Shown piece by piece: positions 2,712-48,825 of a DNA stretch of 64,000 nucleotides. The notes under the pieces were generated by a model. The model was not told the origin of the DNA, did not search any database, and saw only the letters and a list, made by a program, of their open reading frames with translations. A program made the position numbers and the translations under genes. Position 1 is the first letter of the stretch, and the number at the start of each line of letters is the position of its first letter. This DNA is from Podarcis pityusensis (lineage: Eukaryota), in the NCBI GenBank assembly GCA_964106645.2, contig OZ067047.1; one strand, written 5' to 3'.

Positions 2712-2751
<40 letters not shown>

Positions 2752-14700: not shown

Positions 14701-17700
14701 ATGCATATTTACTTTGGGCTCCAGCAGTGTGGCAGCAGTGTGCCTCTTTCAGTAGGTGTGTGCCACAGCGGGTTTTCCAAAGAATTGCCCATAATAGTCT
14801 GTTTACTCTGGAACCCACTGCGGAATGTGGTTCTGCTTCAGAGTATCCTTGTTCTGCCTGGTCTTCTACCATTAAATGAAAACAAGAAGTTGGACATAAC
14901 TTTACAGAAGGAATCTTCATAGCTAGGTAGGAGAGCATGTAAGATCTTGCCAGCACTAGAGAAGGATTTGACTTTTGGGTGGCTGTGGGGGCAAGTTGCA
15001 TCCTGTTAAAATAAGCTATAACTTGGACTCATAATATCCTTTTGAAAGTGTTTTTTTGCTACTTACTTTTCCCTTATATTTCTCTGGATATTCTGGTTCC
15101 TTTGTGGATGGCTCATTTTTTCCCCTCAAGTCTTACACTTAGTTTGTTATTACTCAAGTTTTTTTTCCCATTCCAAAACTGGAAAGGAACTCTCCTTTTA
15201 AAAGAAGCAAAGTTGGTTGACCCTGCTTTCTGAATCAGTAGAGTTAATCCTGTCTTCTAGATAGAAAGAAACTTTGTGGTAAATCCAATTTCCCTTTCTT
15301 CAATAATTTCAGTTTTTTATTTCGGTTCCTATATATAACGGTGTTGGATTCTTCTGTTACAGGCTTCAAAACCCAAAGCACCTTTAAAATCTGAAAAAGA
15401 AAACAATCCTGTAAGAACCCCAGAGGCCTTACCAGAAGATAAAAAGATTGAATACAGACTCCTAAAAGAAGAGATTGCCAGGTATTTGGGCTTCACACAA
15501 TGAAAATCAAGAAAAGCACGAGTTGTTAGCCAAAAACTGACTGATTTAAAAATCAGTGGCCTGATGTAGTCATCCATATTTTTTAATTATTCTATTTTGT
15601 TTATTTAAAGCCTTGGTTTTATTTATAAATTATCTTGTGAGCTGTTCTAATTCAAAGTGGTAGTGATAACAAATCTGATTTTACTTTCTTGGAAAATAAG
15701 TTTCAGATTTTTGTCTGAAAACTAAAGTTTTGAAAATAATGTGTCTTGAATATTTTAGCAGGGAGAAACAACGCCTGATAATATCTGAACCCTTGAAGAC
15801 AAGTTCATCACCAGCAAACTCTGACGTTGAAGTTGATGGGGTTGGTAGGATAGCAATAGTAACAAAACAAGTTACAGATGCAGAGGCAAAACTCAAAAAA
15901 CACAAGTAAGTCCCCTCATCTTAATGGTAACCCTCCGTAGCAATGGTTAGTATGTGTTGTTTGTGTGTTTGGGACACTTCACTTTAACTACATGCAGGTC
16001 CCACTATCTGCCCACTCGTTACGTAAAAATTCCCTTATCTGAACATGAGAACTTTGCATCCGTACACATACAAGCTGATTTAGATATCGAAACAGCTGGA
16101 CCTGCCTATGAACAAAACACTATGAGAGAATGACTTTCCTTAATCTCAGTGAAAATAAAACAACAGCTTTAAAGCAGCTCGTTTAGTCCTCTTCTTACTT
16201 GTTTGCCTTTTGCTGGTTGGGGGCAGCCTGTTTGGGTGCTGTGCTCGCTGATCCTGGCTCCTTAGTTTTCATTCCCGATGCCTCTCCCCAGCAGCCATCC
16301 TCGCTCTACCCTTGACTCCGATCCTCCCCTTAACTTGTGTGCAGAGAAGTTGCTCATGAAGGAGCAGCACCATGCATGATTGGAACTTCCTGCTAAGCAG
16401 AAGGATTGGATCTTGAATGGTGCTGCTCCTTCACAAGCAGCTTTCCTTGTCTGCTGGGAAACTGCAGTGGTGATCTCCCCACCAGCTCTCTGCTTCTCTG
16501 TGTTTTTCTGCCTGTGCCTTCCCACCCCAGCATAATGCTCACTGCAGCTTCGCAGCATTAAAAAATCCCCCAACAATAACCTTAATATGAACTGTATTCT
16601 TAAATAATACCTAAATACTTTGAACAGTTTAGATGGTGGCTCTAATTTCATACAGCTTTTGTATATAGAAATGAATATAGGTGAAATTTGAACTCCATTT
16701 TCTTTTCTTTAGACTTCTCTTGATGAAGGATGAATCTGTGTTGAAACATCTATTGCAGCAAGAGGCAAAGAAGAAAGAGTCTGTTCGTCTTGCTGAAAGC
16801 AAGATTGCAAAACTTAATGAGCAGTTGCAAGCAGCAGAGAAGATATTAAATGCTAATAAAGTGTTCTTGAAGAAGCTTCAGGAACAAGTAAGTTGTCATT
16901 TTCTATAGCACTATAAAACATGTTTGTTTAACCATAGTGTTGTCGGACAGTCATTTTTTACTAGACATATTTCAGACTAATTTGTTAGCTTATTTGGTTT
17001 ATATCCATGCTTGGGTTCAAATGTGACATCTGAAGAATGCATAAATGTTTCAGATCCACAGAGTACAGCAACGAGTAACAGCAAAAAAAGCGCTAGCATT
17101 AAAATATGGAGAAGAGCTTGCTCGAGCGAAAGCACTGGCTAGCAAAGAACTTGGAAAACGAAAACTTGAATATGATCAGTTTGGAGTAAGTATAGCCTTG
17201 AAAACTATAGACCAGAAAACAAGAATATTAACCGAGAGTTGAAATGAACCTCCAAACATACCTGTGCTTTATAATACCAGTTTTCAGTTATTGGAGAAAG
17301 CATAAGAGATTGTTGCATTATGAACATTGGCCACAATCCAAGTAGCATTCTACTTTTTCTGCTTGCTAAGGAGGGTTTGGAGTTCTTTCTCAAAGGGCAC
17401 CCGTCCTTGCCACATGGAATTTGAAAGTGAGATTTTCAAATTCAATTTGTGATCCGGCACAGGGATCTTGGTGCTCATATATTATCCTTACTATTAAAAA
17501 GTCAAATATCCCATGAAATGCGCCTCATCTGTTGGGTCCATTCTGGGAAATAATAGCTTTCAGAGATCATGTTCAACAGATTTGAATATTAAAACTTACG
17601 CTACTGTACCTAAAAGCTTGTTAACACTTCACTTTATGCTGAGCCTCTGAAATACAGCATGATGTCAGAGACAATCCCCCTCTGCCCATTTCAGACCTAA

Positions 17701-20700
17701 GGTTGGAACTGGGGAAGGCAGTGTGAGGGATTCTGAACAATGTGAAAACATGCCCCTGCTCTCTATGTAGTACAGAGCTCAGCAGGATAAAGGCTTGCCT
17801 AGTAAATGCAAAGAAAAAGCTGTCATTATGTATTCAAGGCCGCACACTTCTTTCTGCCAGCTCAGATGGACAATAGGAGGCAGAGCTGGAGGCTTGGCTT
17901 AAAGTTTGTCAGGTGCTCAGAATATCCCATTAGAACAGAGACAAACTCCCATCTGCTCCCACCAGCTTGGAGCTGCATGGAGGATGCAGAGACTGGCTTA
18001 GTTTGTGCCCTTGCTGGGAAGCAAACAGATCAGTTTGGAGGTTGTATCTGTATTTGTAGGCCAAGTGCACATGTTCCAAGCACCTGACATGCATAGAGTC
18101 AAAACAAATTCCAGGCTGGACTTTGGATTATCCATCCCCTCTCCCTGCTAGTCTAAGTTGGGGGAGAGCCTGGGGTATGTCACCTTTGCTAAGGACTGAA
18201 TGAGCTCTTCCCACGGAGAGCAAAATTGTGGGTTCTCGGAAATATATTTGAAATGACATAGATTAATTGAAACACTAATAGTTATACCACTGGTAAATTA
18301 TGTTCTGTTTTTCCCATTTGTATGTGTGAATTGTCTGGTAAGAATTTAAACTACAAAGCTAGTGTTTTTATTTATTTATCTTGTCTGTAAATGTGAAGTA
18401 CTAAGAATTTTGAGTGTGTTTCTTGGCAGCCAAACAAAATATTGAAATTGGAGAAATCTCCTTCGTCGAGCCCCAAGAAACATTCAGCAGAACTGATTGC
18501 ACTGGAGAAAAAAAGATTACAGCAACTGCAGTATGAATATGCTCTAAAAATTCAGCAGCTGAAGGAGGCCCATGCACATCAGACTAAGGACCGATCAAAT
18601 ATTCTTCCCGTTACAGAAGAGGAACCTGAATTTGCACTACCTCAACCTTCCCTTCATGATCTGACACAAGACAAACTGACATTAGATACAGAAGAGAATT
18701 ATTGTGATGATGAAATTTTGTCCAATTCCACCAGAGAACGAAGGAGGTCTTTCAGAGAATCAAATTCTTCTACTAAACCTAACCTTAAGCACATTGACAC
18801 CCCCAAGCAAGAGACTTCAAGCAAACTTTCTAAAAAGATACTAGAACAACCCGAGCTCTTTTTGGGTCTGAATATTGATGAACTGAAAAAACTTCATGGG
18901 AAAGCTGATGGCTTAAAAGATCTCTTGAGAGAAAATACTATGCTTACGGTTTCTAATGAAGAAAACTTACATGGGCAGGTAATTCAGTATACTAATTAAT
19001 ACTAAAAGATCAAGAGTTTTTTTAATGAATTACTGTGGCTTGAGTCTCTGTATGGTTATATATTGTATCTTTTCCCTAGGAAATAAAAGTGGATGTAGAC
19101 CCTTTCACAGCTCCAAGTAAACAAACAGAAGGGAAGCCATATCCATTTGGACCTTATCATAGCCCACTTCTTGTTTTTAAATCTTACAGGTATGAATACT
19201 GAGTTGAGTAAGGATGCTATGTTGCATAGCGGCTTTGAGTATGGTTGGGGATTTCTGTTGTAAACTCCTTTATATGAAAGGATGGTGAGCTTTGAAGTAG
19301 CAATGGAGAACAGAGTTGTAGAACTATAGCTACATTTATGATTCTTGAAGAGGAAGAGCTCTGCAGATGTGAGAAATTAGAGTTTGGTAGCAAATGTTGC
19401 TAAATCGCTCTTGTACAGTGGTGCCCCGCAAGACGAAAAACTCGCTAGACGAAAGAGTTTTCCGTTTTTTGAGTCGTTCCGCAAGACGAATTTCCTTATG
19501 GGCTTGCTTTGCAAGACGAAACGTCTTGCAAGTTCTTGAGAGTTTGTTTCCTTTTTCTTAAAGCCGCTAAACCGTTAATAGCCGCTAAGCCGCTAATAGC
19601 CGTGCTTCGCAAGACGAAAAAACCGCAAGACGAAGAGACTTGCGGAACGGATTAATTTCGTCTTGCGAGGCACCACTGTATTTGTAATTATTGGACTTTC
19701 ATTTAGAACATCAAACACCAAACTGTAGACAATTTAAATGCATTACATGAAGAGGACACATACACATGTAAACAAAAAACAAAAACAGCTACAAAATACA
19801 TATAGAATACAGTTCTCTCTTAAAAGTGGGTGGTAAGAATTAAGAACTACCAGCTGACTTGGTCTTAAATACTTTCGTGGATGAAAGAAAAACAAGCTTC
19901 TATTCCCTTTTGGGATGAACAACAGGTGATGCTACATATCTGCTTATGGTTATGATTATTTTTGAAAAGTGATATAGCATTCAATTTTAGTATCGTTAGT
20001 ACATGTTCGTGTGTTAACCATGAGCTAATTGTATTGGCCTGGAAATATTAACATCTCATGTTTTTACTTTGCTTAGGTTTAGTCCCTATTTTCGAACAAA
20101 AGAAAAGCTTTACCTCAGTTCAGTATCCTACAGCAATATGATTGAGCCTAAACAGTGTTTCTGCCGTTTTGATCTAACGGGTACATGCAATGATGATGAT
20201 TGTCGATGGTGAGTGATTCTCCCTTTCACCTCATACTTCTTTAATTGAATGATCTCTACTGCAGAGGCTATTGCCTTGGGTTTCCAAGCAAATTTGTCAT
20301 TTGATTAAGAAAGATTTTTGTCTGCTGCAAACCAGTTGCTTATGTTAAAAGAAAAGGAGTGTTCATCGAATAACCTGTTTCACTTTTGTATCCTGGAAAG
20401 GATGGGAATGAGGAGAAAGGTACACAGATGGCTTTTTTGGCCATGGCAGTGGAGGGAATCCCTGACCTTTGCTCTACAAACAGATGCAGGAAGATGAGTT
20501 CCAAAGTGCCTTTTGCAGAGTTTTGAAGGCCTCTTAATACAAGCTGGGGGGGGGGGATTTTGCCACTATTTTCTTGAGCATCCCTTGAATATACTGCTCC
20601 AAGAAAAATAGATCATTTTCTGCCCAGAGCAGAAGGGATTTAGCTTCTATATGAAGGCATCAGAATCTGCCTGTTCAGGTGTGGTTTTGCTGTAGTGTGT

Positions 20701-21332
20701 TTGTGTCCTGCTCTGTGTGTAAAAAGAAATGAACCTGGGGTACATTTAAAGAAATCAGTACAGTGGTACCTCTGGTTACGAATGCTTCAGGTTACGAGCT
20801 CTGCTAACCTGGAAGTAGCTGCTTCTGGTTGCGAACTTTACCCCAGGATGTGAACGGAAATCATGTGCGGAGGTGTGTGCACAGCGGGAGGCCCCATTAG
20901 CGAAAGCATGCCTCAGGATAAGAACGGTTTCAACTTAAGAACGGACCTCTGGAATGAATTACCGTAAGTTCATAATCAGAGGTACCACTATAATGGTAAG
21001 AACTTATATACCCAGGAGCAATAGACAGTATTCTGAACTGCCGGCAGCCAAAGCCCCAAAGCACGTTCTCATTCACCCAGCCAAGAAATAATATGCATGG
21101 TTAAATGCCCAGCGATCCTTTCTCCCATAGTTAGGGTTTTGAAGCAAGGCTCTTGGAGAAGCCTTAATCAATGGAGTGAAGTGGGGTGGGGACACCTACA
21201 GGAAAAGAAAGTCATTGCTATTTGTGTGTGTTTGCAGTCCTTTAGAAGGGTTAGAATAACCCATTTAGTCTCCTCATCAATTCTCATTTTATACACATTC
21301 TTCAGTTTTGATGTTACATGGTATTTGAAATC

Positions 21333-21372
<40 letters not shown>

Positions 21373-24300
21373 CCTGTTCGCTGGATCGAATTGGGAATTA
21401 CAAACTGGTTGCCTGAATGGCTGGACCCTGCCCTCAAAACACTTGTATTCAGCTGCTTGTAGCCGTATCATATTGACATATCTGTGTGACCTTATTTAAA
21501 CTCAGATGATAGCTAACATTTGAACGTGAGGTACAGTATGTCGGAGATGCTCTTCAAAGTTCACTTTGCTTTTGAGTAATAAAAAGTTTGAGATGTGTTC
21601 TGTAACACACTGGGATTTCTGAAGTCAGTCCTAATGAGTAATAGTGGCACCTGAGTATTAGGTGGAGTGCATATGTACACTATCCTGTCTTTTATACACT
21701 TGGCTTGCAGCTGCACACTTCTTAGAGTTTCTGGAAATGTTTTAAATGCTGTTTGAAAATAACATTCACTTACTTTAGGTATGATGTTCACAGAGTCCTT
21801 GGCTGATTTTTAAGTGGGATTATTTTTTATTTCAGGCAACACATGAAAGATTGCACTCTCAGCCGAAGACAGCTGTTTGAAGATGTTCTTTCATACAATT
21901 TAGCTCTGATAGGCTGTTCAGAAAAAAGCACGGATGAAGAGATAAGCACTGCAACAGGTATGTTGCTTGTTGGTCTTGCCAGCAAAGCAATTTAGTTCCG
22001 CAATTAGGTATTCTGGTTTCATAGCCAAAAGTTAAGGAAGCAAGCTGCTTCCTAATGCATGCTTTCACTCTGCACTATATTAATATTAAACAAAGTGTGA
22101 TTCCGCCTTCTGCTGTCATGTGTAAATCTGTAGTTGCTTTGTACTTTTCACCTGTGTAAACTTTCAGCAAAAGATAATAAAAGTGAAAAGTATTTGCAGT
22201 TGTATTGATGGACATTGATGCCACCATTTTGAAACAATTTGTAGTGTTAAAAGTTTCATCAGAGTTCTGTGGATTTGGTCATAGATATACAGTATGAATA
22301 CATATAGTTGTAAACTACTGATAACAATATGTGTCTTAGATATTGCTACCATCTTATTTCAGAAAAATATGTTGAAAAACTGTTCGGTGTGAACAAAGAT
22401 CGCATGGCGATGGATCAAATGGCTGTTCTTCTTGCTAGTAATGTCAATGAAAGCAAAGGTCACAGTAAGTAACTTTTAATATCTCAAGATCCGGTCTATA
22501 GCAGTATTCAGTGGGTTTAAAAAAAAAAATGTAGCTCGATAAGCGAGATTTGCTTTGATGATAAAACACGATGCAAAGAATTTAATGTATACTTCAATTT
22601 AATCTCTTTTGCAAATAGCCCCTCCGTTTACAACTTGGAAAGACAAAAGGAAATGGAGACCTAAGCACTGGGGAAAAACTCATTTGGACAGTGATATCAG
22701 CAGTGAAGAGGAACAGTCTTCTGGACCTATTAAATATGGTAGCATTAATTATTAAATCTGGAATGTTAAGAGTAATTTTGAAAAAGGGCAAAAAAATGTA
22801 CTCGAACACATTTACTTGCCCTGTAATGATAAAACTGATATAGGCATATAGAGCTGGTGTCACAGGTAGGTGGCACCATTTCCATACAGACCCAGTGAAA
22901 CTTAGGTTTGAAAAAATCATTCTGTTGCCTACAATGGAAGACTTTTTTGATGTCTAATTTCAGCAGGGGGCGGGTTGTTATAGGATCCTGCTGGAGCTAG
23001 GAAAGGCCTCTGCAAGTATACATGTGTCTGTAGGCACTGTGTTGGCTTAGTTGTCAAGAGTCCTGTGCCTGAGTCAGTCAGTCATGTTAATTGGAGGAAA
23101 GTGTCCTGAACGTCTTGCACTGCTGTCACTCATGATTCAGCATTGACTCACGTAACGATAAGAAAAAAATCAAAATGTTTAAATAAAATTCTCATAGAAT
23201 ATTAGACAAAAGTAACTCAGTTTATTTTGCCATAACAATTACTGTGTGCGCGCACACATACATACTACTGTTTATCAGTGTGTTTGGCTTTTAGTAGATT
23301 GCTTTTTATTCACACTGAAGTCATAACTTGCTGCAGCTTAAAATGAAAGTTGGATTTCAAATCATGAAAGTTGTGACAATCCTTAAAAAAAGAGAATTGT
23401 TTTTATTTGCAGCTCCCGCAGTACAGAACAGAATAAATCTTCCTGCTCTGGATGCTGTTGTGACGCCGGATGATGTTAGGTATTTTACAAATGAGACCGA
23501 TGACATTTCAAACCTGGAAGCAAGTGTACTTGAGAACCCATATAACGTTCAGCTTTGGATCAAACTGGCCTACAAATATCTGAATCAAAATGAAGGGTGG
23601 GTAATTCTTTCTTTGCAAACAAATCAGTTGCACTTTTTGTCTCAAGCTTCTCACCTGTGCTGTTGGAAGCAAGCTTTGTCGCTAGCATCAAAGGACTCTT
23701 TGTTTCTTTGGCCAGTGTACAAATAGGTTATTGTTTTAAAGCAATGGGGAGTGGAATTGATTTGCTCTTTTGTTGTGCACAGTCCAGAGTAAGCATAATA
23801 AATTATTATTATGCTTTAAAGTGCTTCATTTCAGCATGGAAATAGTAAAAAGGGGTTTCATTTTAAGAAAAATGAAGGATACAATTGATTGGATTTCTAA
23901 GGTTGGTTTTCTTAATTCATGATGATAAAATGGAAAACTCCTTAAGCAAGATGGTAGAAGTCATTTTCAGATGTTTTACGTTTACATCAGGAACCAGCAG
24001 GTGTCTGAGAGTATTGGCAACAAACTGCAGTTGTACTTTACCATCCACAAGTGCCTTAGAGTTACCGTGCAAGTTCCCTGTTCTTCCTCTCACTGCTGCA
24101 TTTCAAATCCCTCAAACTGTTTTAAATACAGAAGAGAAAAAGGTGTTGTATGAAGTGCAGAGAGCCTCTGAAAGGGAAATGCATGTGCATGCCTTGGCAT
24201 TGTACCATGAAACTGAGAATGTGAAAATGAATATATTGCTTTCCTTTCTTATTGAAGATCATCCTCCGAACGCTTGGATTCTGCTTTAAATGTCCTGGCT

Positions 24301-27300
24301 CGAGCACTAGAAAATAACAAAGAAAATTCTGAAGTCTGGTGTCATTACCTCAAGCTATTTTCAAAAAGAGGAATAAAGGAAGAGGTGCAAGAAATGTGTG
24401 AGACTGCAGTGGAATATGCTCCTACTTACAAGATTTGGTGGACAGTAAGTTTGATCACTGGAAAAACTATATGTAGTAATTATGAAGTTAGTACACATTT
24501 GCACACTACATCTCACTTCCATGTATGTTTCATTTGAAGGCTTCCACTAAATAGCTTTTACAGCTCAAAAAGAACTTTTACAAAAACTTCTTAAACTTAG
24601 GATTTCCTTTTTTCTGCCACAGGGAATATAGAATCCCATAAAATGTACCAGGCAAATGGATGCCCGTTTGGGGTTCCTTTCACATTACCTTGCACCCAAA
24701 CTTTCCCCCCAACATCATGCCTCCAGGATAATATGTGATACAGTGCAATTGGCTGTAGTTGAAAGCAAACCAAAGGTGACTACAACTAATCCAGAATGCG
24801 GCAGCTAGACTGGTGACTGGGAGTGGCCGCTGAGACCACATAACACCAGTCTTGAAAGACCTACACTGGTTCCCAGTATGTTTCCGAGCACAATTCAAAA
24901 TGTTGGTGCTGACCTTTAAAGCCCTAAACGGCCTCAGTCCAGTATACCTGAAGGAGCGTCTCCACCCCCATTGTTCTGCCCGGACACTTGAGATCCAGCG
25001 CCGAGGGCCTTCTGGCGGTTCCCTCATTGCGAGAAGCCAAGTTACAGGGAACCAGGCAAAGGGCCTTCTCGGTAGTGGCCCCCACCCTGTGGAATGCCCT
25101 TCCACCAGATGTCAAAGAGAACAACAACTACCAGACTTTTAGAAGACATCTGAAGGCAGCCCTGTTTAGGGAAGCTTTTAATGTTTAATAGACTATTGTA
25201 TTTTAATATTCTGTTGGAAGCCACCCAGAGTGGCTGCTGCTGCTGCTGCTGCTGCTGCTTCTTCTTCTTATATCTCTGAAATGTCTCTGTGCATACACAG
25301 AAGCACTTTAGACATTTGCACACAGCTATTTAGATCCCAAAACAAAATGAGATGAATCCTCAAACGTTTTATCTTTCTTAACTGCCCTTCAGTTTCTAAA
25401 TCTGGAAAACTCATTTGATGGAAAGGATTATGTATGTGGGAGAATGCTACAGTTCCTGATGGAGAGTCCAAAATGTGAAGAGAATCTGGATCTTCGGTCC
25501 TTTCACTTGCTGGAGATGTTGCTGTATAGAGTTCACCTAAGCCTTTTTACTGGGAAATATCAAAATGCTGTTGCGTTATTCCAGGTACTTGCTTATGTAT
25601 ATCATGTTACGGTGATTTTTTGGCTTTGGCATCCATTGCTGTTTTGTCCTATATATCTAGTTTGAAGGTAATGTCCCTGCTGCACTATTCAGTAGCAGAT
25701 GAGAGCAATTTCATACAGACCAGAGTGTGCTTCCCTACAGTTATGAAAAAATGCTTGTAAATATGTAAGATCACAAAATCTCCACCATTTTTACTGGGTC
25801 TTCTAGGGAGCAGGGACTTCAGTAGTCTATAATACTGTCTGTGATTAAATGTTCCTCTGTCACATGGTCTACCAGTGTAATATATGGCCGTTGCATACAG
25901 TTTTCAACGTTTGTGTCTTATGCCATCTCAGTCCTTGTAGAAATAGTTTTAACTGCAAATTTATTTATTTCACAACATTTATATGCTGCTTAATTGTAAT
26001 ACCTTAAAGCATTTTTTTAAAAAATGTGAGACTTGGATACAGAACAAATTAGGCCAGGCAAATTTCTAAAACCTGGAATTCCCCAATTGTGACCATGGGA
26101 TCTGTTTAGTGAAACAAAACATTCAAGCTTGATTGCTAGAATATATTTCTATGACTAGGCATAATATAGCAAGGTTGCCCGTTATTTAAGCTGTCAGATT
26201 TAATCATCATATAACTTTCTTCTCCGCAGAATGCACTGAAGTCAGAAAGTGAACCGGTTTTGGTGCAACATCTCACCATAAGTGACCGCTGCTTAGCTTG
26301 GTTATCCTATATACATCTGATTGAGTTTGGCGATCTCCCCATCAAGTTCTATGATCCTGCCAATAGCAACCCTTCAAAAATAATGAAGAAGGAGCCTTTT
26401 TTAATACCTTGGAAAACAATTGAAGATGTGAAAGCTGATCCTGATACTTTGTTAGCGGTGTTTGAAGGTGAGGTTACCCATTTAAATTCAGCTGTGGTTT
26501 ATTTCTTGAATTAATATTGATAGAATATCTAAAATAATTGTGCTATGGTTACGTATGCAGTGGACTTTTGCTTTTCAGTGTGTAGTCTCTTGTGGTCTTC
26601 ATTGATTCAGAGGCAGTTTGCTTATGCTTATCATGTATAGGAGAAGCCATGACTTCTGTCCTTACAAGTCATCTGGGACCAATCCCATGGAGCTTGCTTC
26701 TGAGTAGAATCCATGTATTTTGCAGCAAGACAGTTTATTGTAGTGGATTGTGCAGACTGGCTTGATAATTTCTTCCTATAGGTTTAAAAAACGTAACATT
26801 TGCAGCATTGATAGCCATACAAACTGCAGCGTGAAGAACGGCAGGCTGGTTGGAGTGAGCTGTTGAATGGATGCTGGGAGGCCCTTCTTCTTGAAGTTTA
26901 GCATGCTGTTGGGGGAAGTTCCTTCTCCCCCTCCCTTAAATGCACCAGCAGATAGGCTAAAGGAAAGGGCCCTTTACCTTGTTTTTTTTAGCAAGCAGCT
27001 GGGTGAAGGGCCTCCCCCTCCTTCCAAAGGGGGGAGGGCTTGGGGGAGCTGTGGAAGGATAGGCGGGGGGGGGTGTAAAGGGATGGAGGGAGGGGGGTTG
27101 GTCAAGAATGTGGGAAGGGCAAAAGGGGCTTGTGAGCGCAGCAAGCAGGGAAGGCAGTAGTAAATAATAGTAAGAGGAATCTGTTTACAACAAGTAACTG
27201 AACTGAGACACAGCTTCCTACTGTGATCCTGCATGTTCAGTAATGCACATGTATGTACACAAAGGAAATTCTTTAAATGTTCGTAAAAAATAATTTTGCT

Positions 27301-30300
27301 TTGAGAATAATCAGTGATAATTGGAAGACTGGCTTTGTTGCTTTCTTAACAGTTTGGAAGAACTCAGATCTTATTTTATCTCTTCCGGTTTTTAAAATTA
27401 TTTATTATTATTATTATTATTAGTTGGTATTTTTGTAATGGGAATTTAAAACTTAATTTTGTGTGCTTGGATAATTTACATCTTCACCTCTTAAAAGAAA
27501 CTTTGAAATTATTTCATACCTAACTAAAGCACAATGACTGAAATGAAATGCATGACTACATTGTCTCCCCATCCCCCCCAAAACCCCACCAAAATACAGG
27601 TGTATTTATACATTAACATAAGCTTTTTATGTGGTAATGCTTTTGTATTTGTGAATGTGTAATCTTACTTGATGTTTGCTTGTTTTTAGATGCCATCCAG
27701 TCATGCACCAGTGAGGATTCTGCAGCTGATGAAAGAGTAGTTCTCTGTCTTCCGCTATATAGAAACATGGTCATTTTGCAGCAGCTGTTAGAAAGGTAAG
27801 TCACTTGCAAAATTGCTATTTTTATATGCTGTGTTAAGCATTATGGGTTATATTCAACTAGGTTTTACTCAGAGTAGAACCACTATAATTAATTGCTGCA
27901 AGTTAGCCAAGGCAATTAATTTAAATGGGTCTCCTCTGAGTAAAATTTAGTTGAATAGAATCCTTTGTACAAAAATGCATGGTGAGTGACAATTTCCCAT
28001 TTTTCTGGTATTAACACAGATGAATATATCAGCACTAAGAAAGGAGGTTCATGCCCATTGTTATGATTAAAAAAGAATAGGTAATAGGAAAGAGTGTAAT
28101 AGTTCACAAGATTGTCTTGGAAGTTCTTCTAGGTCACTGTCTTTTTAAAAATAAGATAAGTAATTGCTGTTTTTCACTGTTTTCATTCAAGGTGGGAAGC
28201 TGCTATTGAGCTTTGTAAATCACTCTTGAAACTAAACCCCATTGACTGTCGGCTGCTAGAAGCACTAGTTGGTTTGTACTTGCAGACTGGCCAGATGGAA
28301 AAAGCATGTGACGTGTGGCTTACAGCATTTGAGAAAAACCCTCAAAATGCCCAGGTTTTCTACTTTATGTGCAAATTCTTCATTCTGCAGGTAAAACACC
28401 AATGACTTTATTCAGCTTTTTGTAACTGGTTGGAGAGAAACCCAAGTTTATTTAATATAAAATGGTGACAGTCAGAGTACATTACAGTGAAAGGATTTGA
28501 CCAGGAGTTTGATTTTCAGACTTTAAGCAGCTGAGTTTTTGTTTTGCCTAAAGTTGTTGTTGCCCACAAATGCTAAAAACAAAAAAAGCTGGAATGTGAA
28601 TCTGAAGGGAGTGGTTTATTGGACGATGCAGAACAGCCTTCTTCAGATGATTGGGACTCAACTGTTATCGGCTCCAGCTTGGGTTGGTGAGAGCTGTAGA
28701 GGAAAACATCCGGTTGGGGCACGCTGGCGTTAGAATGTGACACAGATGTTGCAGCAGTCGTGTGTGACTCTTTATCCTTCTTTTGTAATGTGCAAAAGGG
28801 TGAGCTGATGAATCTAACCTATGGAGAGATGAAAAAGTTCATCCTTGAATGTTAACCATTTGAAGCACTGCAGAAAATTTAGGTAGCATTCTGCTTTTGG
28901 GTAATGTCTGCCCACCATCTGCATTCATGGTTTTGAAAGAGCCATTAAAATGTATTACGCAGAAGTTTGATTTGCTCTTCACATTTTGTAACTTTAGTCC
29001 AATGTCACTTACTCTCTCATGACAGAATAGATCAGATAGTATTCCTCCACTGTTGCAAGCCTTCGTTGCAGCATTCTTTGAGTGTGTGACTCGAGACAAC
29101 AGTCCTGTGGATCTGTTACGGTAAGTCTGGCAAGCAAACTAATCATTCCATGCTGCTATGAGCTCAGTTTATGTGATGCGTTGCTCGGTTCCGTTTATAA
29201 AATTTCTGTATGGTTACTTGTAAAAACGCTTACGTTACACACTGCCATTTTGCACAAACCTTAGTTTCTTGGAGAACTTTATGGCGATGCTGTCCTTAGA
29301 TTTCTCATTACAGTGAAAAGCAATTCACATGTTACTTTATTATTTGTCAGTTTGTGTGTTGAGTGTAAGGCAACTAGTGCTTGTGATATAAAAGTAGACA
29401 AATACTTTTAGGAAAGTGGTGCACAGCTATGTCGAGAGAAGCTATTATTTCTTGAGATATTCTTCCAGAATCTTTTAGCACCCTGTAATTATTGGCACAA
29501 ACCCCATTTACATATGAGGTAGCCAGGTTACGTAGCTGAAACTGATGCTGCAAACAGGTAGATAGATTTCTGCAACACCTCAGGCTTTTGAAATAAGCCT
29601 TGCAGCACCCTATGTTGGGGTTGCTATGGGAGCCTATGTTACCTTATGTGTTTCTGTAACTTAATGAAAACACTGCATTTGAGGTAAAAAGTTTATTAGT
29701 GGGTTGCACATAGTGCAAGGCTTCTTTATTTGCCATGTTTATATAGGTATGTATATGTCCATACACGTAAAATACAAGTTTTGAAAGGAAAACAAGCAAA
29801 TAAGCATATACCGTAATAATTGCACAATTTTCAAAAAAATACACCAGATTATGACTAAATTTTAAATAAATGTTAATATTTTAATTCAGAATATTATGAA
29901 TAAACAAATAAGGAAAACACAGGGGGGAACCCCAACATACTTAATATATTTAATATAGTCAATAAGGAGAAGATATTTATATATTGATAATATTTTGCTT
30001 GAGAGACATTATTTTATTCTTATTATTAAAATTGGTATACCGCCGTATACCTGCAGGTGTCAGGGCAGATCACACATATTTATATGTTCTCATAAGATTG
30101 TGAAAGGATTATAACAAAGCCTTCTTCAGACATCTCTTTAAAAGCATATTAAGCATAGCTTAAATACATTTCTTTGGTATCTCCTTCACTGTTTTGTTTT
30201 CACTTGGAATCAAACTAGATACCACAGTAATCCTTGGCGCAAGGGAATGCAGAAAATCATGATTTTGAAACGCAGCTATGCTCTACACTACAGATGGGGA

Positions 30301-33300
30301 AACTAGACAAGCAGCTACCGTTTTCAGTGGCTGCCATACGCTTCTTCCAAATTCTAGTCTGGCTCTTACTCGCTTGGTGATACACATAGGTGGTGTGTCC
30401 ACTCTTTGCTCAGATTGCTTCAGGTTAGGATTGTTTCGGTGTAGTGAACATTTGTCACACTGAATGAGGACTCTTTGTTCTAGATATTTTTTGAATTTCC
30501 CAATGCCAATTGAATTCACACCGCCTATGTATAAGGGAAGCTTTACAGAAGAGCTTTTAAACCAGCAAATTCCTTATTTGTGGCAAATATACTGGTGAGT
30601 TTTTCCAAAGTCTGATAATTTTTTAAATATTGCAACACTTTCTAACTAGGGAACTACAGATTGTAGAGGAGGCAGCTAATCTTGTATTATATATAATAAG
30701 AGCAAATATAAGGAGTGCCATGGTTGTCCTAGTTTCTGCCAGTATCCTTTAGGATTTTGGTATTTCTGTCATGAACATACACCATGCACTGCTTTGCTTG
30801 CCCTTTCTTATGCTATTTAGTTTGCAGTTTGGTGTTACAAACATCTGTTGTAATTTTTTTACTTAAAACACCATGAAGTTGGCTGTGTCTAAGTTTAAAA
30901 TCAGAAGACAGATGTGCTGCTTGAGCCCTGTGTCCCACACTTTAGTTTTGAATTATATATAAATGGAAGAGAGAACTTCTTAGAAGTACTTAGGCAGCTG
31001 CCAAAATCCCTTTATTCAAGTGCTTAGATTCATAAAGTGTAAGGAATTTCTACTAAAATACTCTCATCATCTGCATTGTTGGCCGCAGTATTCTCTTGCA
31101 GACATTCAGTCAAAATGAGATGAAGAGCTGTTTTGCTGACTTACATTAATTACATTAATTACAGTATTAATTATTGCCTGTTAACCACTGTGAATAGTTA
31201 AAGTGTTGAAACACTTTTAAAATTAGGAAACATTTTGTACCTCTGATCATTTTTTTTGGCTTATACTTGCGTATAATGTCAAGCTTCTCCATTGCCCTTT
31301 TCTTTCACAAAAGGCATGTAACAGTTTCAAAAAAGCTAACGCTGTTTTCTTTCAATGAAAAATAGCTTATACCAGTCTCTTCATGGAAGTTCTGGCGATG
31401 CAGTGGATGCTTATGAGGCAGCTCTGGGAGCAGTTATGCAAGAGGAAATAGTTCAGCAGATTTGGATAGAGTAAGTTTAAATGACGAGACATTATACCTG
31501 TAAAAGTAATGCATTTGGAAGTGTTAACACCTGGGTTTCTTTCTTTTTCAGTTACCTTGTTTTCATCAATGGCAAGGTTGTCAGATCTAACAATCAAGTT
31601 CAAGAATTCAAGCTTTTTACAGATCTTGTGAACAGATGTCTTGTTACAGTCCCCACCCGTTACCCTATTCCATTTAGCACCGCTGATTACTGGACCAACT
31701 ATGAATTCCACAACAAGGTATAAGTGTTTTGGTAATTCAGATACAGGACTCTGTATATAAAACACGTTATGCTAAAATACATGTAGGGTTTCCTTAGCAT
31801 TTTGTTCAACATATTGCGCTAAAATACCAGTTCTGTAAGGGAAATGAGAACTGTACACATATACAAAAGCTCCTTGCTGCAGAGTGTGTGTGCACATCTG
31901 TGCAGTGGCTAAATTTGTAGAGTATCAACTTCTCTAAAATGTTTTCTAGGCTGGGGATTGGCGAACTGTAGAAGCCTAGTGTTGCTGTATAGGGAAGGGT
32001 TGTCTGTCTCACTTTCCTTTCAGAGCTGACCTCCTTCAGGTTCCTTAGGCTGCTTGGAGATCATCCTTGGCTAACACCTCTGAAATGCTGCGTCAGCTGG
32101 TGTCTCTTCCACCAGCCCTCCCTACTTTTTGAAGGACTCCAGCATTTGCTGGAAAAGTGCAAATTCCCCTGTTTTCTTCTTGCTGTGGTTCATCTTTGGG
32201 GCCACTGGTACCTGGAAGAGCTATTTGTAGATGCTGCTACTAACTCAGTGCCACTGTCTTCGTCATCAAATTCAAGAGAGAGTGCACATCAGTGTTGGAT
32301 TTGTGAACAAAGCAGGCAGCTTGAATGATCTAACTTCTTGAAAATTAACCTTTACAGGTTATTTTCTTTTATCTGAGTTGTATTCCGAAGTCTCAGCATT
32401 CCAAAGAATTGGAAAGATTTTGCTCTACCATGCCTGCTAATCCTGGACTTGCATTCAGGTAAGAGAATATTGGCGGAAGCATTTAGAAGCAAGTACCTGT
32501 TTTCCCCGATGCCCTTTAAAAAAGTTACTTGCCATCTTCTAAGCTGGATGGCTGAGTGGGGCTTTCTTTGAAGAAAAAAAAATTTCTTCACAAAGATTAG
32601 ATCTGGAAATAAATAGTCTAGAGCAGGGCTTGGGTCTCCAGCTGCTTTTGGACTACAATTCCCCTCGTCCCTGACCACTCGTCCTGCTAACTGAATGATG
32701 GGAGTTATAATCCAAAAAGAGCTTGGAGACCCAGGTTTGGGAAACCCTGGTATAGAGCAAAGAGAACTAATACATAATATGATTTCTAAGCCTTCCTACA
32801 AACTGAAATAATACTTGTTAACAAAAAAACAGGAGGAGAGGAATTTAGTGTTGCTCTTATGGCAGAGCTTTCCAGACTTTCTCAACACTCCTCCCGGGAC
32901 TGGAAAAGGGTTAGTTTGCTAGTAAAACTCAATTACTGCGTCACAAAATGATGTGTGTCTAAAAAGTGTGTCACCAACATGAAAAATTTGGAAAGCCTTG
33001 CTCTAAGGTGATCATTACATTAGGGCAAGCATTTTGGTTTGCCAGATAGAACAGTCTCCCCTTCCCCCCCTGGCATTACGTCTGGGTTTGTGGGACTCAT
33101 TCTTAGACCAAGTATTCTACAGTAGGTTTATAAGAACACTGGACAGAGAGGCTTCACCTGTTATTCCAAAGTAGTATAATTACAACTATTATTGTGAAAG
33201 TCATACAGAAAACGATTATTTCAAGTTATTGATGCTAAAGGTGGTTCTTCAAGCTATTGAGTGATAAGGTGTACTTAGTTTTTCACACATGGCTTCTCCA

Positions 33301-35760
33301 TTTGGGCTTTATTTTTGTTAAATAAACCATGATACAATATGATGTCCTGATGTGTACAACCACAACAGAGGGTGTACTTTCTTTTCCCCCTAACGGCACT
33401 CTCACTTGCACCTCTTCTCCCACCTCCCCCCACCCCTGTTCAAGCTTTTAAAAGAGCTTAGTATTACTGCTTTACATTCTTATTCAGCACTGCATGTTTC
33501 CCTTTGCTCCTTTGTCACTGCAGGCTGCTTCAACAACACTGGGAAGAGAGCAATGTCCAGATTCTGAAACTACAAGCCAAGATGTTTACATATAATATCC
33601 CAACATGCCTGGCCATCTGGAAAATGTAATTCAACAGTCATACACCTGTTAACATAGATAATTTTTTTTAAAAAATAAGGTTTGCTTCATAAAGCTACAT
33701 TTGAAGTAGGCCTTCAAATTTGGTTTTATGCTAGAAAGGTTTTTCATTATTGCAGTCTTTCCACAAACTTTGGTTTAGACAGATTCCTGGCACTAATGTT
33801 GTAAAATGAGGACTGTTGCTTCCCATACAAAAAATATTTCAGAAGTAAGTATGCCTTGTGTGTCTAAGTAAGGAAAATGTGTTGATGAATTTTATTGTTG
33901 CTGCTTTGGAATGTTTACCATTAAATTATTGACTTCTGTTTCCCTCCTCCTTTCTACCCTCCCCTTTATATATCATAATAGCAATATCCAGTGGTGATGA
34001 ACTGATCATTGTCTGCAGTGTTTGTACATAATGGGAACAACTGAAATGTCTTGCTCATGTAAGATTGTTTATGAAATGGATCTTTTTTGTCTCTTCACTA
34101 TAGATTATCATCATTGGGAGTTAGTCTGTTACTTTCCAGGACTTTTATAGTTCCATCCCATACTCAGTGTTCTTCCCATAAAGATATTCGGTATTCTGCA
34201 AAAAAATAAGTCATTTTTATTTCTTCCCTTCAGAGCCATTGCTGCTGAGTGCTTTCTAAAGGGACAGAGAGAGGTATGTAAGAAAAGCTTATTGAAATAG
34301 CCAGTTGCAAAGATACTTAACTAGCCTCACCCCTGGGTTTAATGAACTAGTCCACAGCTTTAAAAAAAAGAAGAAGCTTGAGAACAGTGTTCTTGCTAAG
34401 CTAGCTTTAGAGTAAGAGGTCTGCTCCTCAGAAATTGTGTCTGTTATCAAATGAAGGCAAGGAGGAAGAAAGGTTCTGGCTAAGTCTTTTTTCCTTTTAG
34501 GTTAATTCTGTCAGGTGCTCAATGTGCTAGAGCCAGACTTGGTTGAAACAGACTTTGTGCATTCCTGCAGCTTTCAAACACAGTAGTGTGCCAACACAAG
34601 GACACTTAGGATGTTAATTTAACATACTTAATTCTTCCCACTTGTTCACATAATGCTCATTTACTATGCAATCCTGTACATGTCAGAAGCAAAACCTGAT
34701 TATTTGAATGAGGCTTAGGTCCCAAATAGCTGTCTCCTTCCCTACAAACTAGATAAGTGTCCAAGGAGTGGCAATTTATTTGGCAGTCCCTGAGCTACAG
34801 AAGTGTGTCGGACATCTTCATTCTGTAATTTTTCACATGCTGATGAAGGCGCACCTCTTTACTCTGTCCTTTGACGCCTAAGATATGTATTTGGGACCTA
34901 TCTTGTTCCCTTCAGTATAATCTGTTTTTTTAGTGGATGTCAATGCTGTATTTTTATATAGTTACACCATGGGTCCTCACTGTGAAGGGTGGATAAGAAA
35001 TCAGAACAATTAATTCCTCAGTAAGTGGTGTAGGATTGCAGAGCCTTTAAATAACAAAAGAAGCTTAAATCCAACAAAGGAGTCTTCAGTGATCAGTACA
35101 AACTTTTGAATATATGGCACACAGAAACTTGTTGATGTAGTAAACCAATTCAGTCAATTTGAAATAGGGACAGATAGGACTCTCCTAACTTGCTTCTATG
35201 CATTTACAATGTGATCATCAGGCTTCCATGTCTCCTCTACAGCCTTAAAACTAAGCACTTTTTGAAGAATGTAAAGCTCTTAAATCTAGCAGTAGCCCTC
35301 AAGCATTTCCCTGCCATAGCTTCACCATTCCTAACCTGTGTTACAGGCACTTAAGACAGAAAAAGTGCATGTTGCGCAACAAACATAAGTTTTGTTGGGA
35401 TAACATTAGATTGATTCTTGTCTCTTCTTTACAGGTCCATCACTTATATCAGAGAGCCTTTCAGAAGCTACCTCTTTGCGCAACCCTGTGGAAAGATGTA
35501 ATGTTTTCTCCTTATGTTTCCGTTTAAGGTTTCATTTCAATTTTCTGCATATCCCATGTCCATTGATGTGGTGATATTCCAGCTCTGGCTAAATCTTATG
35601 TCTGCTTCACCATCTCTTACAGCAGCTCCTGTTTGAAGCATCAGGAGGAGGTAAAACTGATAACCTGAGAAAACTAGTTTCCAAGTGCCAAGAGGTTGGA
35701 GTCAGCCTAGATGAGCTTTTAAATTTAAACACTTACAGAACAGAAAGCACGAATCGCTGA
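1884..35760 (+). CDS. ZFC3H1: Zinc finger C3H1-type containing protein (PAXT adaptor), complete 35-exon CDS, about 1991 aa
   Basis: N-terminal EEGELEDGEI motif, coiled-coil and proline-rich regions, C3H1 finger CRFDLTGTCNDDDCRWQH, C-terminal TPR/HAT-like region ending LNLNTYRTESTNR*; all exons join in frame with GT-AG sites; convergent LGR5 matches vertebrate synteny. Confidence 0.97.
2712..2750. repeat. (GT)n(GA)n compound microsatellite
   Basis: Directly visible. Confidence 0.95.
3400..4110 (-). mobile_element. Degenerate L2/CR1-clade LINE fragment
   Basis: Minus-strand translation ...LQPYLD...VTHALVTSDLHYCN resembles the L2 ORF2 C-terminal motif; boundaries approximate; interrupted by a MITE remnant near 3760-3812. 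Confidence 0.6.
5627..5867. mobile_element. hAT-like MITE with internal tandem repeat (TTTTAGGATTGAAGTTGTTGAG)
   Basis: Ends CAGTGGTGTCCA...TGGACATGGCTG are imperfect inverted repeats; no clear TSD. Confidence 0.55.
6481..6900 (+). CDS. ZFC3H1: ZFC3H1 exon 2
   Basis: SKSFGKSPSRK...FEDLLLKYKQIQLELE...DASQ; phase 1-1. Confidence 0.93.
7956..8017 (+). CDS. ZFC3H1: ZFC3H1 exon 3 (start could be 7956, 7959 or 7962)
   Basis: AVDEKEQGEQHLSPSGAAVEK; phase 1-0 needed to join exons 2 and 4; donor AAG/GTAAGT. Confidence 0.85.
8319..8517 (+). CDS. ZFC3H1: ZFC3H1 exon 4
   Basis: KLLDEEEEVSELQLRLLALQSASKKWQQKE...; AG/GT flanks. Confidence 0.92.
8657..8883 (+). CDS. ZFC3H1: ZFC3H1 exon 5
   Basis: AKQALRKQQTKVWKKLQ...EQYNRFMKLVG...SK. 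Confidence 0.92.
10765..10888 (+). CDS. ZFC3H1: ZFC3H1 exon 6
   Basis: SSDKDLRRS...YQYDNYDEVAMDTESETNSP. Confidence 0.92.
10950..11308 (-). mobile_element. Sauria-type SINE, full length
   Basis: tRNA-like head GGGGACGCGGGTGG..., conserved core CTAGCAGTTCGAAAGCA...GCAAGTAGATAAATAGG, (ACCTTT)n tail; CpG still rich, so young. Confidence 0.88.
11513..11752. mobile_element. Tc1/mariner (Tigger-like) MITE
   Basis: TIRs CAGTTGTACCTTGG / CCAAGGTACGACTG flanked by TA. Confidence 0.85.
11827..11924 (+). CDS. ZFC3H1: ZFC3H1 exon 7
   Basis: ASSPVQPPYFECPAGYFSP...QIS; donor GTAAGT. Confidence 0.9.
12556..12759 (+). CDS. ZFC3H1: ZFC3H1 exon 8
   Basis: LEPLPPLPPLPPEEPEQPPKPPFADEEEEEEMLLREELLKSLANKRAFKPE. 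Confidence 0.93.
13266..13430 (+). CDS. ZFC3H1: ZFC3H1 exon 9
   Basis: ENSSNSGPPSPP...RSNLSAVSINTVSQPR...RTVIT. Confidence 0.9.
13681..13818 (+). CDS. ZFC3H1: ZFC3H1 exon 10
   Basis: LPKHKSVVVTLNDSDDSES...FGGLESMIKEARRTVE. Confidence 0.92.
13972..14312. mobile_element. Putative non-autonomous DNA element with internal repeat and L2-tail fragment
   Basis: CAGACCCTCCAA...TTGGAAGGTATG inverted ends; TTGGAGAAATGTTGGARGGTATGG occurs twice. Confidence 0.55.
15363..15481 (+). CDS. ZFC3H1: ZFC3H1 exon 11
   Basis: ASKPK...TPEALPEDKKIEYRLLKEEIA. Confidence 0.92.
15759..15905 (+). CDS. ZFC3H1: ZFC3H1 exon 12
   Basis: REKQRLII...SSSPANSDVEVDG...KLKKH; TAGCAG tandem acceptor. Confidence 0.9.
16713..16887 (+). 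CDS. ZFC3H1: ZFC3H1 exon 13
   Basis: LLLMKDESVLKHLLQQEAKKKES...KKLQEQ. Confidence 0.92.
17054..17185 (+). CDS. ZFC3H1: ZFC3H1 exon 14
   Basis: IHRVQQRVT...KYGEELARAK...DQFG. Confidence 0.92.
18430..18978 (+). CDS. ZFC3H1: ZFC3H1 exon 15
   Basis: PNKILKLE...LPQPSLHDLTQDKLTLDTEE...NLHGQ. Confidence 0.93.
19080..19189 (+). CDS. ZFC3H1: ZFC3H1 exon 16
   Basis: EIKVDVD...PYHSPLLVFKSYR. Confidence 0.92.
19416..19678. mobile_element. Tc1/mariner (Tigger-like) MITE
   Basis: TIRs CAGTGGTGCCCCGCAAGACGAA / TTCGTCTTGCGAGGCACCACTG, TA TSD, internal GCAAGACGAA repeats. Confidence 0.9.
20077..20208 (+). CDS. ZFC3H1: ZFC3H1 exon 17 (C3H1 zinc finger)
   Basis: FSPYFRTKEK...QCFCRFDLTGTCNDDDCRW. Confidence 0.94.
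20761..20990. mobile_element. Tc1/mariner (Tigger-like) MITE, same family as 61548-61774
   Basis: CAGTGGTACCTCTG...CAGAGGTACCACTA, TA flanks, shared internal GGAGGCCCCATTAGC. Confidence 0.85.
21333..21371. repeat. (ATT)n microsatellite
   Basis: Directly visible. Confidence 0.95.
21836..21957 (+). CDS. ZFC3H1: ZFC3H1 exon 18
   Basis: QHMKDCTLSRRQLFEDVLSYNLALIGC... Confidence 0.92.
22363..22464 (+). CDS. ZFC3H1: ZFC3H1 exon 19
   Basis: EKYVEKLFGVNKDRMAMDQMAVLL...ESKGH. Confidence 0.92.
22619..22738 (+). CDS. ZFC3H1: ZFC3H1 exon 20
   Basis: TPPFTTWKDKRKWRPKHW...GPIKY. Confidence 0.92.
23413..23596 (+). CDS. ZFC3H1: ZFC3H1 exon 21
   Basis: PALDAVVTPDDVRYFTNETDDI...KYLNQNEG. Confidence 0.92.
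24258..24444 (+). CDS. ZFC3H1: ZFC3H1 exon 22
   Basis: LDSALNVLARALENNK...CETAVEYAPTYKIWWT. Confidence 0.93.
24778..25270 (+). mobile_element. L2/CR1-clade LINE 3' fragment with (GCT)n(CTT)n tail
   Basis: Encodes LQLIQNAAARLVTG...DLHWFPV...FKMLVLTFKALNG...RAFSVVAPTLWNALP, typical of L2 ORF2 C-terminus; contains stop and frameshift. Confidence 0.88.
25393..25584 (+). CDS. ZFC3H1: ZFC3H1 exon 23
   Basis: FLNLENSFDGKDYVCGRML...AVALFQ. Confidence 0.92.
26230..26467 (+). CDS. ZFC3H1: ZFC3H1 exon 24
   Basis: NALKSE...SDRCLAWLSYIHLIEF...LLAVFE. Confidence 0.93.
27690..27795 (+). CDS. ZFC3H1: ZFC3H1 exon 25
   Basis: DAIQSCT...CLPLYRNMVILQQLLER. Confidence 0.92.
27845..27963. mobile_element. Palindromic (fold-back) MITE
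   Basis: TATTCAACTAGGTTTTACTCAGAG...CTCTGAGTAAAATTTAGTTGAATA long inverted repeat; relative at 52633-52752. Confidence 0.7.
28192..28390 (+). CDS. ZFC3H1: ZFC3H1 exon 26
   Basis: WEAAIELCKSLL...WLTAFEKNPQNA...CKFFILQ. Confidence 0.92.
29026..29120 (+). CDS. ZFC3H1: ZFC3H1 exon 27
   Basis: NRSDSIPPLLQAFVAAFFE...DLLR; phase 0-2. Confidence 0.88.
30484..30594 (+). CDS. ZFC3H1: ZFC3H1 exon 28
   Basis: YFLNFPMPIE...NQQIPYLWQIYC. Confidence 0.9.
31366..31470 (+). CDS. ZFC3H1: ZFC3H1 exon 29
   Basis: LYQSLHG...DAYEAALGAVMQEEIVQQIWID. Confidence 0.9.
31552..31717 (+). CDS. ZFC3H1: ZFC3H1 exon 30
   Basis: YLVFIN...FTDLVNRCLVTVPTRYPIPF...YEFHNK. Confidence 0.93.
32358..32458 (+). CDS. ZFC3H1: ZFC3H1 exon 31
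   Basis: VIFFYLSCIPKSQHSKELERFC...GLAFR. Confidence 0.92.
32624..32749. mobile_element. hAT-type MITE
   Basis: CAGGG...CCCTG ends, internal palindrome, 8-bp TSD GTCTAGAG/GTATAGAG. Confidence 0.8.
33524..33625 (+). CDS. ZFC3H1: ZFC3H1 exon 32
   Basis: LLQQHWEESNVQILKLQAKMFTYNIPTCLAIWKI. Confidence 0.93.
34234..34273 (+). CDS. ZFC3H1: ZFC3H1 exon 33
   Basis: AIAAECFLKGQRE; 40 nt, phase 2-0. Confidence 0.9.
35435..35497 (+). CDS. ZFC3H1: ZFC3H1 exon 34
   Basis: VHHLYQRAFQKLPLCATLWKD. Confidence 0.92.
35623..35760 (+). CDS. ZFC3H1: ZFC3H1 exon 35 (coding part, stop TGA)
   Basis: QLLFEASGGGKTDNLRKLVSKCQEVGVSLDELLNL...*; CAGCAG tandem acceptor. Confidence 0.93.
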   Translation, partial: QLLFEASGGGKTDNLRKLVSKCQEVGVSLDELLNLNTYRTESTNR

Positions 35761-36489
35761 ACACTGGGTGCAGTCAGTGCTAAGTCCTATTAAATGCCAA
35801 AATCATTTGAATGATTCTCCAGGCTGATCTCTGGCTTTAGGCCTCTGAAAAGCAGATGCGCAAAGCTGAGCATATCAAGTCTCTCTCTGGCCTGCTTTCC
35901 TTGAACCTGGAAACAATTGACATGATCGCCTCCTTGGATAAATGAATGTCCTCTATGGCCTGCTTCTGGGCCCTGCCAGACTCTCATAACATCATGTACG
36001 TAAGTATAGTTCATCCCAATGACAGACTTTAAATGTGTTAATTTTTATATTTTATTTTCGATTTTTCATTTTCTTTTGTGCGGTTCCTGATTTCACTTGA
36101 CGCTCGCACTGATGCCTGAGAGATCTGTGTTTGGGGCTAAAAATATGGGCTGAGTTTACAGCAAAAACTATCGGTCCACTTTGTTTTCCTCCCAACCCCA
36201 CCCCACCCTCTTTCCCAATCCCTTTTTGTTTCGTTTTGGAGATTCGTTTTCATTGCAGGATATAAAAACAAAAGCAGCCGCTCTTAAGGAAAGTAACTGC
36301 CATGGCCACAAGTATGCTTTTTGCACTTGAAGGCTCATTGAGGGTGGTTTCCTGCCCTTTCTGCATTCTGGACTTGTGGCAGAGACTTAAACTTGAAGAT
36401 TAAAGATACAGTTGCAATTGCCAGTGCATCAGAACCTAAGAGTGGTCAATTTATTATGTGCAATTTTTTGTAAAGAAATTTTAATTTAT

Positions 36490-36495
36490 AATAAA
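36490..36495 (+). terminator. Likely ZFC3H1 polyadenylation signal AATAAA (ATTAAA also at about 36529)
   Basis: Canonical hexamer 730 nt after the stop in AU-rich context with upstream TGTA. Confidence 0.6.

Positions 36496-48780: not shown

Positions 48781-48825
<45 letters not shown>

Follow-up and report, generated by a model that had tools for sequence, protein, structure and literature searches.

The closest described systems are those in which a 5' splice site lies upstream of a poly(A) site and the transcript is handed to the nuclear decay machinery. Lee 2015 (PMC4380460) reported that a 5' splice-site motif in the 3' UTR causes the mRNA to be retained and destabilised. Nearly 6% of human 3' UTRs contain the consensus motif, which is about 25% depleted there, and a stem over the motif abolished retention in a reporter. 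Lee 2022 (PMC9074902) placed ZFC3H1 and U1-70K in one pathway, and in both studies the terminal-exon 5' splice site is reported to be inhibitory to 3'-end processing. According to Soles 2024 (bioRxiv), PAXT decay is triggered by the junction of a 5' splice site and poly(A). In their reporters, a 3' UTR 5' splice site combined with a poly(A) site resulted in a 4- to 7.6-fold loss, which was relieved by depleting ZFC3H1 or EXOSC3, and sites created by SNPs in the UTRs of F9 and p14 led to exosome-dependent loss. RNAs with weaker sites were more stable, the working strength being a MaxEnt of 6.02 or more. The authors proposed that introns bearing assembled spliceosomes escape decay. If so, we would expect that a working acceptor downstream of a UTR donor could blunt the retention of the message rather than add to it.

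There is also evidence of self-regulation in PAXT. Rapid depletion of LENG8 or ZFC3H1 raised the ZFC3H1 mRNA modestly by RT-qPCR, in both nucleus and cytoplasm, and the synthesis of LENG8 and ZFC3H1 went up reciprocally (PMC13391367). The rise of the human ZFC3H1 mRNA is below the DESeq2 threshold of that study. Its text ties the self-regulation to retained introns and, in the parts available, names no UTR element. Its intron list, which appears to be a PAXT-sensitive set, includes one ZFC3H1 row (chr12:71657302-71663012, 5.7 kb), whose coordinates place it near the 5' end; a UTR intron that is not annotated could not figure in the list. Another nuclear decay factor, PABPN1, limits its own mRNA by binding to an A-rich tract of the UTR and controlling its last annotated intron (PMC12385487), and PABPN1-sensitive terminal introns are reported to be insensitive to ZFC3H1 loss (PMC10158996). 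Within the mostly open-access full-text literature that we searched, no paper describes an element of the ZFC3H1 UTR that resembles a splice site. In the available parts of PMC12179342 and PMC12048591, ZFC3H1 is found only in the references, and a term search of the available text of PMC12363940 returned no passage on ZFC3H1 autoregulation.

The ZFC3H1 gene and the donor-like site in its 3' UTR

The window, a stretch of 64,000 nt from Podarcis pityusensis, includes the whole ZFC3H1 gene, which lies on the + strand. When one large exon was used as the query, 160 proteins were returned, and the top match, at 98%, was ZFC3H1 of Podarcis raffonei (P0001), which has zf-C3H1 and HAT/TPR domains. Once the exon model was mapped from this protein, the gene gave a single open frame that encodes 1990 residues, and 1969 of them are identical to P0001. 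The assignment to ZFC3H1 made in the initial annotation is thus borne out. The features of the gene and of the donor-like site are:

1884..35760, + strand: ZFC3H1 coding region, 35 exons, ATG at 1884 (exon model from P0001)
35758-35760, + strand: stop codon TGA
35997..36007, + strand: donor-like U1 site TAC/GTAAGTAT (8-mer at 36000-36007), 9/11 U1 matches
35995..36008, + strand: predicted weak hairpin of 5 bp around a GUAA loop, pairing -1..-5 with +5..+9 of the donor

The initial annotation had placed TAC/GTAAGTAT at 36000-36007, 240 nt past the stop, and had called it a strong 5' splice site. The motif is present and begins 239 nt 3' of the stop by our count; its strength was overstated. Its U1 matches are at the level of the best 2 among the 34 real donors of the gene, and its duplex with U1, predicted at -7.6 kcal/mol, surpasses 19/34 of theirs in strength. 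On a matrix built from the gene's own donors the site scores 3.2, which beats only 3/34 real donors, because of the C at -1. Hence, this is a site of average, or medium, strength. The motif of Lee 2015, [C/A]AGGU[C/A]AG, has no match in the UTR. The donor-like site reads TAC/GTAAG and, since it has no AG at -2/-1, falls outside that consensus.

We then asked how often such motifs occur. In the 64 kb, GTAAGTAT has 5 copies on the + strand and 4 on the - strand, and among 2000 dinucleotide shuffles of the UTR (755 nt) it appeared in 12. A donor with 9 matches together with an equally good acceptor arose in 7/2000 of the UTR dinucleotide shuffles and in 3/129 real 755-nt tiles of the window. The donor/acceptor pair is uncommon, yet it is not remarkable for a motif picked post hoc. 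The + strand copy at 17186 is a real donor; those at 33845, 38363, and 45697 are not annotated donors, and one of them lies inside intron 32.

The hairpin predicted over the donor has -2.1 kcal/mol alone and a predicted pair probability of 0.6-0.8 in context. It would explain why the C at -1 has been kept (see below). The folding of the donor region as a whole was no better than that of shuffled sequences (z of 0.76, 0.64, -0.56, and 0.21), and a search against Rfam gave no matches.

Conservation of the donor block

The conservation of the UTR was read through an open frame of 84 codons that runs antisense to the gene (35793-36044). The frame matches no Pfam family and we do not claim it as a gene; gene callers sometimes call such antisense frames on the contigs of other organisms, and the resulting peptides can be compared. 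A word-based search gave 7 proteins from 7 candidates and an exhaustive search gave 11, with 4 shared. One protein (P0129) was excluded as a false match driven by a repeat, and 13 peptides were kept. In several frames, they run collinear with 35764-36092 of the UTR, indicating that they derive from orthologous UTRs. They are not independent: 9 of them form one group (78-100% in the core) and the other 4 are at 42-63% from these, which makes at least two deep sequence groups. Judging from this divergence, the divergent group is probably non-squamate. One peptide (P0131) presumably resembles the mammalian ZFC3H1 UTR.

35964..36011, + strand: conserved 48-nt block containing the donor-like site, 11/16 antisense-frame columns invariant in 13/13 peptides

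When the alignments were anchored on residues away from the donor, the residues NYTYV over 35997-36011 were found in all 13 peptides. The adjoining region (35937-35963) has 0/9 invariant columns, although the anchoring is ungapped and indels inflate the contrast with the 48-nt block. The invariant residues fix most of the donor bases, namely -2 A, -1 C, +2 T, +3 A, +5 G, +6 T, and +8 T. At +1 and +7 the peptides require no more than a purine, and the bases at +4 and -3 are free. At +1, a change from G to A would be silent in the peptides, and a change to C or T makes a stop, which could hide the record. We conclude that the donor-like motif is real and conserved at the level of these alignments, and is hence more than a motif expected by chance.

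The invariance is not confined to the bases required by U1. It is equal 20-35 nt upstream of the donor and at +9 to +12. Since much of the UTR also aligns, the constraint may serve something else. Upstream of the donor, another invariant block spans about 35964-35980. A 5-bp hairpin predicted there in short contexts (35965-35980) was discarded, as it is gone in a 120-nt context. Scans of metagenomes for the motif in vertebrate orthologs were discarded as well: they gave 0 matches, and then 5 that covered only the 19-20-nt seed and were attributed to chance.

The candidate intron and the poly(A) signals

The initial annotation proposed that the donor at 36000 pairs with an acceptor downstream to make an intron within the 3' UTR. 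The U-rich stretch, the pyrimidine tract, the acceptor AG, and the AATAAA at 36490 were all found where it had placed them.

36000..36258, + strand: candidate 259-nt 3' UTR intron with GT-AG ends, from sequence
36038-36082, + strand: U-rich stretch, 67% T
36178-36237, + strand: pyrimidine tract, 83% C+T
36247..36259, + strand: acceptor-like site CATTGCAG/G, ending CAG/G, with the AG at 36257-36258
35789..35794, + strand: proximal ATTAAA, possible alternative poly(A) signal about 30 nt past the stop and upstream of the donor
36490..36495, + strand: AATAAA, likely the main poly(A) signal (motif)

The acceptor-like site outscores 27/34 of the real acceptors of the gene. A branch-like yTnAy motif is lacking 12-56 nt before it, where 27/34 of the real introns have one, and the closest yTnAy is 100 nt upstream. 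The last 97 nt of the candidate intron include only one intervening GAG. At the other end, the first ~90 nt align with two of the conserved peptides (P0122 and P0133). Peptide searches on the acceptor side gave no matches. Peptides of the junction form were found in 0/13 cases, a weak observation as some of the source contigs are genomic. The candidate junction would lie 239 nt past the stop, exceeding the 50-55 nt distance for NMD.

The AATAAA at 36490 is in the same exon, 231 nt past the acceptor and 490 nt past the donor, and a further ATTAAA is found at 36399, downstream of the donor-like site. The antisense residues over the proximal ATTAAA are kept in P0124 and P0126. If this signal were used, it could yield a short UTR without the donor-like site.

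Splicing and NMD catalogues

If the candidate intron were spliced in other vertebrates, it might figure in published catalogues. In the parts of the Ensembl 3'-UTR-intron tables available for human, mouse, and zebrafish (PMC7310861), no principal ZFC3H1 isoform is of this kind. The sole ZFC3H1 row is a human 34-exon transcript whose UTR measures 1655 nt, with the farthest junction at 787 nt. The difference leaves 868 nt, which is near the 888 nt of the lizard's unspliced last exon and suggests that no UTR intron is used. In the exon junction complex (EJC) libraries of PMC8091538, 0/5 of the unannotated human ZFC3H1 junction rows in the tables available are in the UTR; annotated junctions are not listed there. 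Judged by its flanking letters, the lowest of the 5 corresponds to intron 27. This intron is at 29121-30483 in the window, and its human counterpart holds an unannotated 103-nt cassette exon that is enriched in these libraries and of low conservation.

For comparison, in the NMD meta-analysis of PMC5238794, ZFC3H1 is at row 6195 with a final value of 0.35 and a UPF1 P of 0.83, with the order of the columns inferred from the table. It is outside the top 1000 NMD targets, and it has signal only in the double knockdowns, weak in SMG6/SMG7. The supplements of PMC9203280 (12 of 34 files) and of PMC9249230 (4 very small files) held 0 matches. A search of sequencing runs with 35420-36560 listed 24 runs, none of them recorded as RNA. 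Of 14 contig sets guessed to be RNA, 12 contain 0.79-0.87 of the words of this region, where a share of 0.74 is the maximum if the candidate intron is always removed. As these sets may be DNA, we do not count them as evidence. In short, the part of the earlier proposal in which splicing within the UTR exposes the mRNA to NMD found no positive support: the human, mouse, and zebrafish tables searched contain no annotated isoform, there are no UTR junctions among the five listed, and the gene-level sensitivity to NMD is weak.

Possible roles of the conserved donor

Our preferred reading, held tentatively and with somewhat less than even confidence, is that the conserved UTR donor of medium strength stays mostly unspliced and makes part of the ZFC3H1 mRNA a PAXT substrate. 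U1 snRNP would probably be bound at the 36000 motif, usually without splicing. Together with the poly(A) factors, it could recruit ZFC3H1-MTR4, as the literature describes for a UTR 5' splice site, leading to nuclear retention and exosome decay. More ZFC3H1 would then remove more of its own message, a gentle negative feedback that the C at -1, the predicted weak hairpin over +5..+9, and the possible upstream poly(A) signal would keep partial. This accords with the donor residues invariant in 13/13 collinear peptides, with the 9/11 U1 matches, with the ZFC3H1- and EXOSC3-dependent losses of the reporters of Soles 2024, with the higher ZFC3H1 mRNA upon depletion of LENG8 or ZFC3H1 (PMC13391367), and with the absence of a spliced isoform from the catalogues searched. 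The stem that cancelled retention in PMC4380460 is a precedent for structural tuning. Against it, the donor is outside the Lee 2015 consensus and low on the own-gene matrix, the +1 G is not directly read by the peptides, and an even better consensus motif is present in the almost 6% of human 3' UTRs already mentioned (PMC4380460). Furthermore, the invariance goes past the needs of U1 in a UTR that largely aligns. The initial annotation had suggested that the unspliced mRNA is retained by its own product. The conserved block, the published decay signal, and the rise of the human mRNA point in this direction, but that rise falls short of the DESeq2 threshold and could be explained by an intron near the 5' end, where the sole ZFC3H1 row of PMC13391367 lies. 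The retention arm is plausible and the NMD arm unsupported.

It is unlikely, although far from implausible, that the block is instead a UTR element unrelated to splicing, such as a site for an RNA-binding protein or a microRNA or a small structure, and that the resemblance to a donor is fortuitous. Feedback on ZFC3H1, if real, would then act through the 5' intron or weakly spliced coding introns. The human ZFC3H1 intron on the presumed PAXT-sensitive list (PMC13391367) and the EJC-enriched cassette exon from a coding intron of the human gene, another unproductive route (PMC8091538), would suit such a scenario. So would the invariance of the non-consensus C at -1, of +9 to +12, and of the second upstream block, as well as the comparable donor and acceptor pairs in 3/129 real tiles and the GTAAGTAT copy inside intron 32. 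However, a neutral terminal-exon site with 9/11 matches should be counter-selected, given the ~25% depletion of the consensus (PMC4380460), and this one has been kept; neither an Rfam match nor a significant fold speaks for a different function. We find it quite doubtful that a true UTR intron, spliced slowly from a distant branch point, occupies 36000-36258, an intron whose retained form goes to PAXT and whose spliced form goes to NMD. The acceptor above 27/34 real ones, the long pyrimidine tract, the yTnAy 100 nt upstream with one intervening GAG, the pair recovered in 7/2000 shuffles, the conservation of the donor and of the first ~90 nt, and the weak human signal in the SMG6/SMG7 double knockdown (PMC5238794) would all be in line with it. 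It is difficult to reconcile with the sole human row, which implies an intact 868-nt last exon, and with the lack of a mouse or zebrafish row in the tables available (PMC7310861). The 0/5 unannotated human junctions in the UTR (PMC8091538), the position in the NMD meta-analysis (row 6195 and UPF1 P 0.83, with the column order inferred; PMC5238794), the 0/13 junction-type peptides (weak, as some contigs are genomic), and the missing proximal branch motif weigh on the same side. On the evidence so far, splicing to 36258 followed by NMD is a minor side route at most. Finally, U1 at 36000 might dampen the downstream ATTAAA at 36399 and AATAAA at 36490, so that the choice between proximal and distal signals sets the output independently of the level of ZFC3H1. 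We consider this very unlikely. It would fit the reported inhibition of 3'-end processing by a terminal-exon 5' splice site (PMC9074902, PMC4380460) and the proximal ATTAAA kept in P0124 and P0126, but the loss of the F9 and p14 reporters was rescued by exosome depletion (Soles 2024), which favours decay over blocked processing.

Comparison with known systems

The site resembles the NRDC/PAXT substrates that combine a 5' splice site with poly(A) in having a donor-like motif in the terminal exon with a canonical poly(A) signal downstream. The cases described so far comprise intronic poly(A) transcripts, reporters, and strong sites made by SNPs. The SNP-made site in F9 has a MaxEnt of 10.93 and is 208 nt before the signal, against 490 nt in ZFC3H1 (Soles 2024). 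Unlike these cases, the ZFC3H1 site is natural and conserved, lacks AG at -2/-1, is followed downstream by a possible acceptor, and belongs to the mRNA of the very protein that reads such sites. It would supply a cis element for the rise of the ZFC3H1 mRNA reported upon PAXT depletion in the work on PAXT self-regulation through the LENG8 and ZFC3H1 mRNAs (PMC13391367). The parallel with PABPN1 drawn in the initial annotation is loose. PABPN1 likewise keeps its own mRNA down by means of the exosome and a feature of the 3' end that stays unspliced (PMC12385487), whereas the longest A-run in the ZFC3H1 UTR is 5 and the candidate intron is wholly past the stop instead of being the last annotated intron. 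With the NMD-coupled 3' UTR introns of ARC and SRSF4 (PMC7310861) and TARDBP (PMC12179342), the candidate shares GT-AG ends more than 50 nt past the stop and a place in an RNA-processing gene; those introns are demonstrably spliced and annotated, whereas 36000-36258 is a candidate based on sequence.

The component mechanisms are all known, and ZFC3H1 applying them to its own mRNA would be new. The level of PAXT sets how much aberrant polyadenylated RNA exits the nucleus. If our preferred reading is correct, a decay code would be used on purpose on a full-length mRNA and not on faulty transcripts, and a conserved natural donor would make the self-regulation loop of PAXT accessible through two bases. 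If the donor plays no role, a conserved UTR block remains to be explained.

Other introns and neighbouring features

Other features of the locus include:

35498..35622, + strand: intron 34, the last in the coding region, 125 nt, with a weak donor, GAT/GTAATG
47510-48784, - strand: large terminal exon encoding a 7-transmembrane receptor (7tm_1), tail-to-tail with ZFC3H1

Gene models reading through the last coding intron were found in 3 of 120 relatives, and the read-through starts with the residues VMF, as in the window. They are from a rattlesnake (P0016) and two frogs (P0116 and P0119), which suggests that the first bases of intron 34 are conserved to amphibians. This makes intron 34 (35498-35622) a candidate retained terminal intron as well. 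An alternative C-terminus made by splicing exon 34 to 36258 was not seen in a by-eye check of the 120 C-termini. Intron 34 ends in a tandem acceptor, CAGCAG, at 35620-35625, and one relative (P0008) has no Q at this junction, consistent with the use of the second AG. At the other end of the gene, intron 1 (2488-6480) has a weak donor, AAT/GTATCC, and is likely the counterpart of the human 5.7-kb 5' ZFC3H1 intron. The neighbouring 7tm_1 exon is one that we take to be part of LGR5, presumably the usual neighbour of ZFC3H1.
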